NCBI GenBank assembly: GCA_965202985.1 | Contig: CBDBCF010000001.1 | Span: 1,888,001 to 1,952,000, forward strand | Origin: Longimicrobiales bacterium | Lineage (GTDB): Bacteria > Gemmatimonadota > Gemmatimonadetes > Longimicrobiales > Gaopeijiaceae | Length of the DNA: 64,000 bases | Reading direction: 5' to 3' | Part shown: piece after piece, positions 35,301 to 41,300 of the stretch | How the letters are laid out: each line of letters begins with the position of its first letter | Position numbering within the stretch: position 1 is the first letter of the stretch | Program-made: the position numbers

Positions 35301-38300
35301 GCGCGCGGGTGGCCGACTCGGACCTGGAAGACGTGATCGTGGGCGCGGAGGCGGTAGTGGAGCGGTGCAGGCTGCGGCGCTCGATCGTGGGGAGCGGGGC
35401 CGTGGTGCGGGGCTTGACGGGCTCCGTTCGGGTCGCCGACCACGCCGAGGTGCTTTCGCAAGAGCCGTAGAAGCGGCAATCTGGAGGAATGGAACACGAC
35501 GGGCTGATCCGCGACTGGAACGTGGCGGAGTTCGAGACGCTGGCCTGGGGCCGCCACGTGGAGCTGGACGACGAGACCCTGCGGGACGGTCTCCAGTCGC
35601 CCTCGGTGGTGGACCCGCCCGTCGCGGCCAAGATCCGCCTGATCCACGTGATGGACGCCTTGGGCATACACTCGGCCGACGTGGGTCTTCCCGCCGCGGG
35701 TCCCCGGGCCGTGGCCGACGTGACGCGGCTGTGCGAGGAGATCCGCGACTCCGGGCTGGCGATCGAGCCCAACTGCGCCGCCCGCACCGTGCTGGGCGAC
35801 GTCGAGCCGATCGTGCGCATCTCGCAAGAGACGAGCGTGGAGATCGAGGTGTGCGCGTTCGTGGGCAGTTCGCCGATTCGCCTGTACACCGAGGGCTGGT
35901 CGCTGGACCGGTTGCTTCGGACCGCCGAGAAGTCGGTCGGCTTCTGCGTTCGAGAGGGTCTGCCGGTCATGTTCGTGACCGAAGACACGACGCGCGCGGA
36001 CGGCGAGACACTCAAGTCCCTGTACGGCCACGCCATCGGCTGGGGCGCGCGGCGGATCTGCCTTTCGGACACGGTGGGCCACGCCACGCCGTCGGGCGTG
36101 CGCGCGCTGGTGCGGTTCGTGAAGCGCGAGATCATCGACCCGTCGGGGGCCAACGTGAAGCTGGACTGGCACGGCCACCGCGACCGAGGGCTGGGGCTTG
36201 CCAACGCCTTGGCGGCGATCGAGGCCGGGGCGGATCGCATTCACGGCACCGCCATGGGAATCGGCGAGCGCGTGGGCAACGTCGAGATGGACCTGATCCT
36301 GGTGAACTTGGCGCTGGCCGGGGTGCACGACGCCGATCTGACCCGGCTGGCCGAGTACTGCGAGATCGTGTCGCAAGAGTGCGGCGTGCCTCTGCCGTCC
36401 AACTATCCCGTGCTGGGCGAGGACGCCTTCCGCACCGCCACCGGCGTTCACGCCGCGGCGATCGTCAAGGCCCAGGCCAAGGGCGCGCACTGGCTGGCGG
36501 ACCGGGTCTACTCGGGCGTGCCGGCGTCGATGGTCGGGCGGCGCCAGGAGATCGAGGTGGGTCCGATGTCGGGGCTGTCCAACGTCAAGTACTGGCTGGC
36601 CAGCCGCGGCTACGACGCGGACGACGAGGTGCTCTGCGAACGGGTCTTCGACAAGGCCAAGTCCGTGGACCACACGCTGTCGGAGTCGGAGATCGCGGCG
36701 GTGGTGGAGGCGGGCGGAGACGCCGAACGCGGGGCCGGGGGCAGGACGGCCGGTTGAGAAAGCCCGTGGTCGAGGGTTTGGACCGGCAAGGCGACCGCCC
36801 CCGCGTGCTGGTGATCGAGGACGACTTCGAGATCGCGGCGCTCGTGGCGTACCAGCTGGCGAAGGAGGGATACCGCGTGGAGACGGCGTCCAGCGGCTCC
36901 GAGGGGCTGACCTCGCTGCACCGGGACATCCCCGACTTGGTGGTGCTCGACCGGATGCTGCCCGGCGTCACCGGCGACGAGGTGCTGAAGGCCGTCCGGC
37001 GCGAGCCGGCCACGCGGGCCGTGCCGGTGCTGATGCTGACGGCCAAGCGCGAGAGGGGCGAGCGGATCGAGGGGCTGGAGATGGGCGCCGACGACTACCT
37101 GACCAAGCCGTTCAGCACGCGGGAGCTGGTGCTGCGAGTGGACGCGATCCTGCGACGGGCGGTGGGCGGGGGCGCGACCGCCGGGCCCGGCGGCCCCGTG
37201 CTCTCCGCCGGCGACCTGCGCGTGAACTTGGGGGCGATGCGGGTCACCGTGCGGGGCAGCGAAGTGCGGATCACGCCGACCGAGCTGCGACTGCTGCGGG
37301 CGCTGCTGGAGCGTCGGGGACGCACGCTCAGCCGTCGACAGCTCCTGGAGCGGGCTTGGGGGCCGGAGCACGGCTTGAAGGACCAGGTGCGGACGCGGAC
37401 GGTGGACATGCACGTCCGGCGGCTCCGCGCGAAGCTGGGGAGCGCAGGCGAGCAGATCGAGACGGTGCGCGGGTTCGGGTACCGCTTTCGCGCCGGAGGG
37501 CAGTAGGCGCGTGCGTTTTCCGCTGCGTCCCGCCGCGATGGCCGGGGCGGCGGGGGCGGTCCTGCTGGCGGGCGCCGCCGGCTGGGCGTCGACGCGGGCC
37601 TTGGCGTCGCGGGCGCTTGTGGACGAGGCCGCGCGGCATGTGGAGCAGGTCGCCCGGCTGGGGGCCGCCCGGTTGCGCGCTTCCCAGGAGCTGCCCTTGG
37701 ACAGCGTCGTCCGGTCGCTGGCTCGCTCCACCCGATACCGAGTGAGCGTCTTCGACGGCCAGATGCGGCCCTTGGCCGACTCCAGGCTGGGGCCGGGCGC
37801 GTCCAGCGTCGCGGTGGTCGGGGCCGGTCCGGCGAGCGCGTCGCCCTCCGCGTCGCTTCCCGAGGTTGCGCAGGCGTTGCGAGACGCCCGAGCGCCGGCG
37901 TTCTCCCACCGGGTGGCCGAGGACGGGGGAGGCCCGTACCTGTTCGGCGCCGCTCGCCTGTACTGGCATGGAGAGACCGCGGTGATCCGCTTCGGGGCGC
38001 CGACCGAGCCGATCGAGGAGTCGGCGCAGCGGGCGGCCCGGAACGTGGCGCTGGCGGTGCTGGGAGTCGGCGCGGCGGTCCTTGCGGCTCTCTACTGGGC
38101 GCTGGGCCGACTGGTGCGGTCGCTGAACGCCGTTGGGAACCTGCTGACCCGGATCGGCGCCGGGGGGGCGACCAGTCGCCGGGCGCCCTTGTCGCGGGTG
38201 AGCGAGCTGGCGCGCGCAGGTTCGGCCGCGAATCGGCTGCGGACCGATGTGGAGGCCCGCGCCGTGCGCGCCGCCCGAGAGCGGGACGAGCTGGCCGGGC

Positions 38301-41300
38301 TCGTTGACCAAGTCGACGAGGGGCTGATCGCGCTCGACGCCGACGCCCGCGTTCTGCGCATCAACCCGGCGGCCAAGGACTTGCTGGGCCTGACCGCCGT
38401 CCCCCGCTTGGCGCCCGTGGGGTCGGTCGTGCGCGACAAGGACCTGCGCGACCTGCTGGAAGCGTCGGTGGCGCGGCCCGAGGCGCGGTCCGAGGTGGCG
38501 GTGGACGCGCGGAGGCTGGACGTGCGGGCCAAGAGGGGGACGAAGGGCGGCGCGGTGGTTCTGCTCGTGGACGTGACCGCGATCCGGCGGCTGGAGGAGG
38601 TGCGGTCCGACTTCGTGGCCAACGCTTCCCACGAACTCAAGACGCCGTTGACGGTGATTCGGGGGGCGGCGGAGACGGTGATGGACCGGGACCTGCCGGC
38701 GAACCTGCGCGACCAGTTCCTTCGCTCGATCGAGAGCAACACCGTGCGCCTGCAGCGTCTGGTGGACGACCTGCTGGACCTGTCCCGCTACGAATCGGGC
38801 GGCTGGCGGCCGGTGCGGCAGGTCGTTTCTCCCTCCGAGACCGCTTGGCAGGCGTGGGGCGAACTGGAAGAGGGCGGGGCGGCCGGCGGCGCGAAGTTCC
38901 GCGTGGCCGGGGACGGCCGAGCCCAGGGCGACGCCGGAGCGGTGCACCAAGTGTTTCGGAACCTCTTCGAGAACGCGTTGCGGTACGTGGCCCAAGACGG
39001 CGGCCGCGTTTGGGTGGAGGTGCAGGAGGAAGGCGACCAGCTGCGCGTGTCCGTCCGGGACAACGGCGCCGGGATACCCGCGTCGGCCCTGCCGCGCATC
39101 TTCGAGCGGTTCTACAAGATCGACCCGGCCCGGTCCCGCGCAGGCGGCGGAACAGGTCTGGGGCTGGCGATCGTGCGGCACCTGGTCTCCACCATGGGGG
39201 GCGACGTGTCGGCGGAGAGCGCGCTGGGATCGGGCACCACGATCTCGTTCACGTTGCCGCTGGTGCGCGACGCGGATGCGGCGGGGGATGCCGTTCCGGA
39301 GGCGGCCGGGCAGGTGGCTGCCGCGACCTCTCGATCCGGGGGCGACGCCGCGGACTACGACGCCGTTCCGGAGGCGGCGGGCCAGGCGGAGGCCGACGCG
39401 GACGCCGACTTGCCCCCGTCCGTCGGGACGCGACCGGTCGCCGGAGTCGCAGCGGCCCTTGCCTGTGCAGCCAGCTTGGCAGCGGGTTGCGGCGGGACCG
39501 GCTCCGAGTCCGGCGGGTCGGCCGAAGTCGTGGTCGTGGGGGTGTCCGCCAGCCTGAGTCCGCTCGCGGAGGTGGTGGCGGAGGCGTTCGTCGAGCAGCG
39601 CCCCGCGTACAGGGTGGCGGTGAGTCCATCGGGCTCCGGCGGCGCCCTGGGACGGCTGTGCAGGGGCGAAGTGGAGATCGCCGGAGCCTCGCGCGCGATC
39701 TCGGCGGCCGAGGCGGCCTCTTGCCGGCGCGCCGGACGAGACTACTTGGCCGTTCCCGTGGCGCGGGACGGCGTGACGGTCGTGGCGAACGCCGCCAACA
39801 CGGCCGTGATCTGTCTGACGCTGGCCGAACTCGCGCGCATCTGGGAGCCGTCGAGCCGAGTCGCGACGTGGAACGATCTGCGGCCCGGCCTGCCGCGCGA
39901 GAAGGTGCGCCTTTACGGACCGGGTCCCGATTCGGGGACGTTCGACTTCTTCACCATGGTGGTGGCGGGCCGAGCCAAGGCCAGCCGGGCGGACTACCAC
40001 CAGAGCGTGAGCCACCACTTGGTCGCGCGGGGAGTCGCCGGCCACCGCTGGGCGCTGGGCTACTTCGGCTACGCCCACTACGCCGCCAACCGCGAGCGGC
40101 TTCGGGCCGTCGCCGTGGACACCGGCTTCGGCTGCGTCCCGCCGTCTCCGCCCGCCTTCCTGGACGGCCGCTACAGCCCGCTGGCGCGCGACCTGTACAT
40201 CTACGTGGGACGCCGGAGCTTGGCCCGCCCCGAAGTCTACGACTTGGCCCAGTTCTTCGTCGGGGCCGGCGAGACGCTGGCGGTCGAGGTCGGTTACGCC
40301 CCGCTGCCCGCCTCGGAGTATGCGCGCAACCGGGAAGTCCTGGCCCAGGCGCGCGCCGTGGCCGCGAGGGGTACGCCGTGAGCTCTGCCCGCGCCGACAG
40401 GCTTGCGCGACGGCTGTTCCTGGCGTGCGCGCTGGTCTCGGGGATTGCTGCGGCGGCGGTGGTCGGCGTCCTGGCAACGGAGACCGCGCGGTTCTTCATG
40501 GAGGCGCCCGCCGGCGGCTTCCTCTTCGGGACCACCTGGGCGCCGTTCGCCGAGGAGCCCCGCTTCGGCGTCCTCCCCCTGCTGGCGGCGACCGCGCAGA
40601 TCACGGCGGGCGCGGCCGTGGTCGCCGTCCCGCTGGGCTTGGCCACCGCCGTCTACCTGGTCCACTACGCCGGCCCTTGGACGGCTCGCGTCGTGGGCGC
40701 GTCGGTGTCGTTGCTGGCCGGGTTGCCGACGGTCGTCTTGGGTTGCTTTGCCCTGCAGTTCGCGACTCCCCTGCTGACGCGCATCTGGCCGGCGACGGAG
40801 GCGTTCAACGGCGCCTCGGCGTGCCTGGTCGTCGGCGTCATGATCGTGCCGACGGTCGCGGCCTTGTCGCGGCAGGCCCTGGATTCGGTCCCCCGGTCCT
40901 TGGTGAACTCGGCCCTGGCGCTCGGCGCAAGCCGCGGCCGGACGGTGGTGCGGGTGGCCGCGCCGGCTGCCCTTCGGGGGTTGGCGGCGGCAGTCTTCCT
41001 GGCGACGGCGCGGGCCGCCGGCGAGACGATGATCGTGACCATGGCCGCCGGCAACCAGGGGCGGCTGGCTTGGAGCCCGCTGGAAGGGTTGCGCACCCTG
41101 ACGACCTTCATCGCCCACGCGAACACGGGCGAAGCCGCCCCCGACGCGACCACGCACCGGGCCGTGTTCGCCGCCGCGGCCGTGTTGTGCGTCTTGACCT
41201 TCGGCTTGCACGCCGCGGGCCGGTCGCTCTACTTGCGCCGGCGTCCGGAGGGGGCCGCAGAATGGGCCTTGCCGTGACTTGGCGCAGTCGGGCCGGCGCG

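Follow-up and report, generated by a model that had tools for sequence, protein, structure and literature searches.

The stretch of DNA analysed here (the window; 64,000 nucleotides) carries a phosphate-signalling operon on the + strand. The gene phoB (36766..37506, +), coding for an OmpR/PhoB-family response regulator whose best match, TIGR02154, stays below the cut-off, is followed by a single ORF of 956 aa with a GTG start (37511..40381, +) in which phoR and pstS are fused. Downstream are found the permease genes pstC (40378..41277, +; 4-nt overlap with the stop of the fused ORF) and pstA (41274..42137, +; start placed at a GTGA overlap with pstC), then pstB for the ATPase (42134..42901, +) and phoU (42898..43677, +), both identified by domain profile. 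The fused ORF was recognised by the ORF call and by domain and family profiles: PAS (residues 262-362), HisKA (365-430), HATPase_c (473-585) and PBP_like_2 (667-917) were matched, and the best NCBIfam matches were PhoR-type kinases and the PstS family TIGR02136, all below the curated cut-offs. A contig from a public run (n = 1), possibly itself the source of the window DNA, crosses the phoR-pstS junction with 0 differences; run X2 leaves the linker uncovered, which carries no weight. The ORF, its domains and its neighbours confirm that the frame is real and that, as the first-pass annotation had described, a single PhoR-PstS ORF lies between phoB and pstCAB-phoU. In a structure model of the full-length protein (pLDDT 62, pTM 0.33) the linker stays below 50, and a fold search with this model returned separate kinase and PstS matches only. 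The Atlas search gave histidine kinase clusters only, and a literature search found no PhoR-PstS fusion.

The N-terminal part of PhoR (37511..38104, +) was delimited by hydropathy, the structure model and a weak Pfam match. It is predicted to contain a first transmembrane segment (residues about 8-26), a periplasmic alpha/beta domain (about 28-176) and a second transmembrane segment (about 180-198). The cytoplasmic part (38294..39265, +), assigned by domain profiles and alignment, includes PAS, HisKA with the phosphoacceptor His374 and HATPase_c; the H box is invariant in the alignment and the N/G boxes are retained among the intact fusions. This domain set and the neighbouring phoB, pstSCAB and phoU are those of a PhoR, although the kinase part does not reach the family cut-offs of TIGR02966 and NF046044 (249.9 vs 334.2 and 282.3 vs 400), two models built for other lineages than this one. 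A complex prediction for the PhoR periplasmic domain with PstS (score 0.01, mark 0.32) counts neither for nor against binding.

The PstS half (39491..40381, +), described by family profile, structure match, alignment of contact residues and dN/dS, is of TIGR02136 type; its family score of 195.7 comes near the cut-off of 206.6 without reaching it, and the closest solved structure is 4JWO (E=4.6e-66). Seven of the nine phosphate-contact positions are kept in the alignment (S679, S681, S709, S727, S808, G809 and T810); the altered ones are A680 and P804. In the window PstS the contact equivalent to Thr12 is Ala and the motif QSVSHH is drifted, and the Arg125 equivalent is Pro here as in nearly all split relatives. 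The Ser/Gly/Thr residues of the phosphate site and four cysteines are invariant or nearly so. The dN/dS of PstS in fused pairs (0.18-0.30) is similar to that of PhoR and to that of split PstS (0.12-0.27), indicating that the fused PstS is under purifying selection.

Between the two halves lies an acidic linker (39266..39430, +), delimited by sequence and by its low confidence in the structure model. From kinase end to Cys it measures 25-78 aa in 21 representatives and has no conserved motif. It is followed by a putative internal lipoprotein signal peptide (39431..39490, +), recognised by sequence and hydropathy: Arg641, the hydrophobic stretch P642-G659, a lipobox LAAG and Cys660 (39488-39490) form a predicted Lgt/LspA site at which cleavage would occur. 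The previously noticed lipobox-like segment ending in Cys is therefore present. With the lipobox definition given in an extract of PMC9360617, the basic residue, the hydrophobic region and the lipobox Cys are all found, but the signal is not N-terminal, the Cys being residue 660. Ala stands at position -3 of LAAG-C, as it does in 16/51 N-terminal lipoboxes of the same genome. The lipobox Cys is kept in 21/21 representatives and in 50/50 cluster members with both halves; because it was located by searching for Cys, this invariance is partly by construction, and the real test is that each fusion has one that ends a hydrophobic run. In a comparison whose rows are kin and not independent, the uncharged run before the Cys was 15.05 in fused (n=22) and 14.48 in split proteins (n=44; p=0.46) and the 12-residue hydropathy 1.90 and 1.89, with a slightly higher 19-residue hydropathy in the fused ones (1.35 vs 1.12, p=0.049) and a lower n-region net charge (1.0 vs 2.84). 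Judged by these features, the joint in the fusions is an unchanged PstS lipoprotein signal peptide. The host genome has lgt, lspA and LolA; no lnt was found in it above cut-off.

The fusion occurs in some uncultured Gemmatimonadota and in dozens of metagenomic proteins. It is present in 4/4 genomes of the genus, with about 64% identity at the lowest, in agreement with the earlier claim that it is fixed there. It also extends beyond the genus: both states are found in the sister genus (4/45 fused) and an additional origin was detected in another family (f7). A length-restricted search gave 26 matches, namely 20 intact fusions, four tandem PstS-PstS proteins and two broken sequences; P0086, P0088 and P0097 were rejected as tandem PstS proteins, and P0023 and P0026 as broken inside HATPase. 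Among the matches listed in a metagenome scan there were no close fused loci, and 0/8 distant adjacent phoR-pstS loci among 160 were fused. The tree requires five changes between fused and split state, at least four of them forced by starred branches, and a single fused clade was rejected (p-AU 1.5e-8). By this phylogenetic evidence the fusion arose about five times in the clade and once in the other family.

The comparison of loci also shows the path that was followed. In the ancestor, phoR was followed by a spacer, which held a Pho-box-like repeat and a separate start, and then by a lipoprotein pstS. The phoR stop and the pstS start now overlap (NTGA) because the clade lost this spacer, and minor frameshifts or deletions there then joined the frames several times. 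In G568, the former pstS ATG has become ACG and no longer lies in frame. The phoR/pstS junction is fused in 8/52 cases and the five other junctions of the pho operon, mostly as overlapped, in none (0/20, 0/53, 0/52, 0/28 and 0/28). Elsewhere, a cytoplasmic molybdoenzyme is fused through an export signal to an unrelated exported AmiA-like (amidase-like) protein in G000 (the window's genome), in G003 and at 4/30 sister-genus loci, and FtsX/AttH is fused in 3/3 genus genomes and split in 15/15 others. The clade has repeatedly joined other pairs of genes across an internal export signal. An aquaporin-plus-lipoprotein frame of G000 was set aside as a further case because it has its own TTG/ATG.

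Since the joint is the old signal peptide of PstS, cleavage of the product most likely restores two ordinary proteins. We consider it probable that the frame codes for a polyprotein, in which lipidation by Lgt and a cut by signal peptidase II would yield a normal PhoR and a lipoprotein PstS; as in such a polyprotein, the frame is one ORF whose downstream part keeps an internal export signal and has no separate start. PhoR would insert via its two transmembrane segments with the kinase in the cytoplasm, and the retained signal peptide of PstS would re-engage the Sec translocon, leading to PstS export. Lgt would then lipidate Cys660 and LspA cut between G659 and C660, so that PstS becomes an ordinary lipoprotein and a stub of linker and signal peptide stays on the C-terminus of PhoR. 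Signalling would proceed unchanged by the usual PstSCAB-PhoU-PhoR route, and the sole effect of the fusion would be to fix the synthesis of PhoR and PstS at 1:1, in an operon that has lost its Pho box.

The first-pass annotation had proposed that the fusion tethers PstS to the kinase and had named signal-peptidase cleavage as the alternative; its observation and the fixation in the genus stand, and the alternative now appears more likely. A permanent tether, to which we give a minor share of the probability, would mean that the segment remains in the membrane as an additional, third span, lipidated or not, and keeps PstS attached to PhoR on the periplasmic side, where it would be pinned beside the PstCAB-PhoU-PhoR complex or signal to PhoR directly. 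The origins of the fusion, at least five or six, would also fit selection for a tether, as would its fixation across a genus with such divergence, the predicted periplasmic domain of PhoR and the uncharged run of 18-19 residues in the window's subclade, long enough for a weak membrane span. However, no fusion has turned the joint into a stronger membrane helix or lost the lipobox, and the linker varies in length without a conserved motif. The tether is not the best reading because the signal peptide is unchanged, because in P0087, an independent fusion, PhoR lacks a periplasmic domain, a short loop being all that separates its two N-terminal hydrophobic segments, and because unrelated gene pairs were fused in the same manner. 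It is similarly unlikely, if still worth considering, that the chain stays uncut or partly cut, so that a PhoR bearing a C-terminal periplasmic phosphate-binding protein would have evolved repeatedly in these Gemmatimonadota, as a covalent PhoR-PstS link that would dock the kinase on PstCAB-PhoU and read outside phosphate directly.

In a less probable scheme, the phoR stop was lost while PstS is still made from a start in the linker, the read-through product being minor or trimmed. The window's linker has an in-frame TTG at 39410, 26 codons before the Cys, and those of G090 and G070 a GTG 19 codons before it, from which normal-looking signal peptides would result; yet the GGAGG lies 17 nt upstream of the TTG. 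The earlier statement that the linker lacks Met holds for the 21 representatives counted but not for G066, a fusion known from a single genome, which has an ATG there. An internal ATG, GTG or TTG start is ruled out in G001, G003 and G085, whose linkers have none in frame, although G000, G090, G070 and G066 carry candidates. In G002 the sole candidate is 6 codons before the Cys, and P0007 and P0008 have no Met, Leu or Val between kinase end and h-region; near-cognate starts are possible. Very improbable, and already largely refuted, is decay or artefact, with a dying PstS made redundant by a second pst operon, or an assembly error. The fused PstS is 55-69% conserved across the clade vs mostly 73-80% for the second PstS, the window copy has the Ala contact and the drifted motif given above, two database 'fusions' are broken and G066 stands for a single genome. 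Against this stand the dN/dS values and phosphate-site residues described above and the dozens of members of the same architecture from ENA, NCBI, JGI and Logan.

The second pst operon is more conserved and has a Pho-box-like repeat (GTTAC) before its pstS. None was found upstream of phoB, and the fused-gene operon has lost its own. A promoter/terminator scan of 33500-44000 (0 and 0) is uninformative because the DNA is GC-rich. The fused-gene operon is probably a constitutive sensing transporter, inducible uptake being probably the task of the second operon; this apparent division, with one Pst constitutive and linked to PhoR and the other under a Pho box, can also be put to the test.

The path from a spacer with its own promoter to a 4-nt overlap and an in-frame fusion is visible in genomes, repeated and at several unrelated junctions. 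Should LspA cut a lipobox that lies 660 residues into the chain, lipoprotein signals need not be N-terminal, fused genes need not be partners in function, and a class of lipoproteins escapes the predictors; even then, internal lipoprotein signals appear to serve this clade as a general way of making polyproteins. An uncut chain would be a natural covalent PhoR-PstS construct, useful for testing the communication between Pst transporter and PhoR.

Phosphate signalling by PstSCAB-PhoU-PhoR/PhoB is described for E. coli and Caulobacter in an extract of PMC11208175. The window resembles it by the seven components in one operon, the intact kinase motifs and a predicted phosphate-binding site, and differs by the shared frame of PhoR and PstS, the periplasmic domain of PhoR and a Pho-box-like repeat placed before the second pst operon instead of the fused-gene operon. 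TIGR02136 lipoproteins are represented by 4JWO and, in an extract of PMC5381212, by C. perfringens PBP-1. The PstS half shares with these the lipobox, 7/9 contact positions and probably the fold, and departs from them by its internal signal peptide, Thr12 to Ala in the window and Arg125 to Pro.

In BvgS/EvgS, covalent binding-protein domains form an N-terminal input ahead of the signalling helix, and PknB-type proteins have a kinase-TM-sensor order. As in BvgS/EvgS, a single chain here combines a kinase with a Venus-flytrap domain, but PstS comes after the ATPase domain, behind a flexible, low-confidence linker and a lipoprotein signal. To our knowledge very few bacterial polyproteins are cut by signal peptidase (FbcH), none of them at an internal lipobox. 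Bradyrhizobium japonicum FbcH, a cytochrome b-c1 precursor that Thony-Meyer et al. are said to have described in 1991, is reportedly one gene for two membrane-associated proteins that are separated at an internal signal sequence, the cut being of signal peptidase I type and the products two subunits of the same complex. The PhoR-PstS frame, with its several origins, is most likely a bacterial polyprotein too and not a tethered sensor of a new kind: it also joins two membrane-associated proteins at an internal signal sequence where cleavage is predicted. Unlike in FbcH, the site is a lipobox (Lgt/LspA), a large cytoplasmic kinase closes the upstream part, and overlapping genes gave rise to the fusion several times.

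The phoR-pstS gene is a single open frame of 956 aa on the + strand (window 37511-40381), which begins 4 nt past phoB and overlaps pstC by 4 nt at its end, with pstA, pstB and phoU following in that order. Domain search placed PAS, HisKA and HATPase_c at residues 262-585 and a PstS-family domain at 667-917. At the joint, an acidic linker is followed by Arg641, a run of 18 uncharged residues and the lipobox LAAG-Cys660 (lipobox rule: excerpt of PMC9360617). Nucleotidyltransferase and HMGL-like coding sequence (window 34466-36757) leads straight into phoB with 8 nt between them, so an unrelated promoter further upstream may drive the pho operon.

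The one-ORF arrangement reported for the genus in the first-pass annotation was recovered in all 4 of its genomes. A length-restricted search returned 26 matches: 20 intact fusions, 4 tandem PstS and 2 broken. Members of the fused clusters come from ENA, NCBI, JGI and Logan, and those members of related clusters that carry a name are assigned to Gemmatimonadota. The sister genus is polymorphic (fused in 4/45), and fused and split members coexist within one 90% cluster. The fusion is real and recurrent; that it is an assembly artefact is rejected.

The family's other genera contributed 25 loci, at which phoR and pstS are separate, with no fusion. GTTAC-N6-GTTAC (≤2 mismatches) was present in 19 of 24 phoR-pstS spacers of these genera (shuffled mean 1.05, maximum 4); from PhoB biology, we take this repeat of 11-bp period to be a putative Pho box. 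In the clade formed by the window's genus, its sister and a third genus, none of the 51 scored phoR/pstS junctions reached the repeat threshold, and the 52 junctions classed comprise 37 NTGA overlaps of 4 nt, 8 fusions and 7 other short arrangements (coupling by short overlaps: excerpt of PMC10666635). On a tree built from concatenated PhoR and PstS sequences (95 rows, with a 41-row subset chosen after its inspection; G014 was excluded, as were loci without the end of PhoR), the fused or split state requires 5 changes, at least 4 of them forced by starred branches, and a single fused clade is rejected (p-AU 1.5e-8). Because the outgroups are split, these changes are read as fusion gains. A further fusion, protein P0087 (9 cluster members), was retrieved by profile search of a 50%-identity library and is carried by G568, a genome of another family. 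In its relatives the two genes are separate, the start of one overlapping the stop of the other; the fused DNA looks like the outcome of a small deletion at that overlap, with the former ATG now ACG and out of frame. Fusion has arisen repeatedly from overlaps. In G014, a phoR is separated by a single TAG from the other PstS type in frame, followed by phoU-pstC-pstA-pstB-pstB (L036), one base change short of another fusion.

The second stand-alone pstS operon noted earlier does exist, as pstS-pstC-pstA-pstB-pstB (G000:C1:2464955-2469423, whole-contig numbering). The genome's second-best Pho-box-like match lies 50 nt ahead of its start, and upstream of second pstS genes the median repeat score is 12.0 versus -4.0 in coding controls, reaching ≥13 in 10 of 23 scored loci (7 of 30 unscored). 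No such repeat precedes phoB in 19 loci. This second PstS, found in 52/53 genomes of the sister genus, 3/3 of the third genus, 3/4 of the window's genus and 137/314 of the family, is much better conserved within the clade than the fused copy. We infer that the fused operon provides a constitutive, PhoR-linked sensing transporter and the second an inducible uptake transporter. The best Pho-box-like match (G000:C1:540003) precedes a frame of 1939 codons or more that gives weak matches to Ig/cadherin-like domains, and a second PhoB-like match (66% identity) occurs at G000:C1:633552-634232.

Within the operon, fusions occur at phoR/pstS alone (8/52). None was found at the other five junctions (0/20, 0/53, 0/52, 0/28 and 0/28), and at four of these most loci likewise have a 4-nt overlap; phoR/pstS is the sole junction with an export signal on the downstream gene. 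Scanning the window's genome gave 9 internal lipobox-like matches, four of them plausible, versus 139 N-terminal ones; two were traced in related genomes. An FtsX/MacB permease is joined in this way to a CrtC/AttH lipocalin (G000:C1:1700262-1704617, +), fused in the 3 genus genomes having the pair (G000, G001, G003) and split in 15/15 loci of other genera. Likewise, a xanthine-dehydrogenase-type molybdoenzyme subunit is joined to an AmiA-like (PF07313) exported protein (G000:C1:2198353-2202120, -), with a lipobox in G000 and in 4/30 sister-genus loci and a signal peptidase I-like signal in G003; the pair is split in G001, G002, G099 and G129, and most split loci have stop/start overlaps. An aquaporin (MIP) is in frame with a downstream lipoprotein having its own TTG/ATG candidates (G000:C1:1165818-1167926, +).

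The PstS signal peptide is kept in every phoR-pstS fusion. [GAS]-Cys ends the hydrophobic run in 21/21 representatives and in 50/50 cluster members having both halves (63 rows checked; the other 13 lacked either the anchor motif or a half). The linker, of low confidence in the structure model, spans 25-78 residues in representatives and 126 in G066. Mapped on C. perfringens PBP-1 (contacts from an excerpt of PMC5381212), the window PstS keeps 7 of 9 phosphate-contact positions, with Ala680 for Thr and Pro804 for Arg, the latter also in nearly all split relatives. Both halves are under selection; for PstS, dN/dS is 0.18-0.30 in 6 fused pairs versus 0.12-0.27 in the 3 scorable of 7 split pairs, dS being compressed by GC bias; judged by its sequence, the PstS half is still functional. 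In the window's subclade its motifs have drifted (GVSASL for GGSSSL, window 39539-39556; QSVSHH for QTENDH, about 40000-40020), possibly a change of affinity.

Decay or artefact is a highly improbable account. Initiation of PstS inside the linker is doubtful: candidate in-frame starts are present in G000, G090, G070 and G066, but the linkers of G001, G003 and G085 contain no in-frame ATG, GTG or TTG, so that, barring a near-cognate start, PstS there must derive from the fused chain. The fusion claimed in the first-pass annotation stands, whereas the permanent tether of PstS to PhoR proposed with it appears unlikely. Three features of the joint count against a clean signal-peptide reading: the 18-19 uncharged residues in the window's subclade, the less basic n-region of fused sequences and their slightly higher 19-residue hydropathy (p=0.049; the rows compared are related to one another). 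However, 12-residue hydropathy is equal in fused and split rows, and the mean length of the uncharged run is 15.05 residues for fused (n=22) and 14.48 for split rows (n=44; p=0.46). It is also hard to see why a cytoplasmic molybdoenzyme should be tethered to a periplasmic amidase-like protein, but their fusion would be cheap if a signal peptidase cuts the chain. Direct PstS-PhoR contact cannot account for all origins either, since the PhoR of P0087 lacks a periplasmic domain.

The gene probably encodes one polyprotein. Its internal signal would re-enter Sec, Cys660 would be lipidated and LspA would cut the chain, after which standard PstSCAB-PhoU-PhoR signalling (excerpt of PMC11208175) would follow. 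The host genome encodes lgt, lspA and lolA; lnt gave no match above cut-off. The phoR-pstS fusion is best interpreted as a polyprotein cut by signal peptidase II, and as one case of a pattern that spans the clade. The literature searched, with most subscription papers and supplements outside it, yielded no PhoR-PstS fusion or internal-lipobox polyprotein; the closest precedent for such a polyprotein is reportedly FbcH, the cytochrome b-c1 precursor of Bradyrhizobium japonicum.
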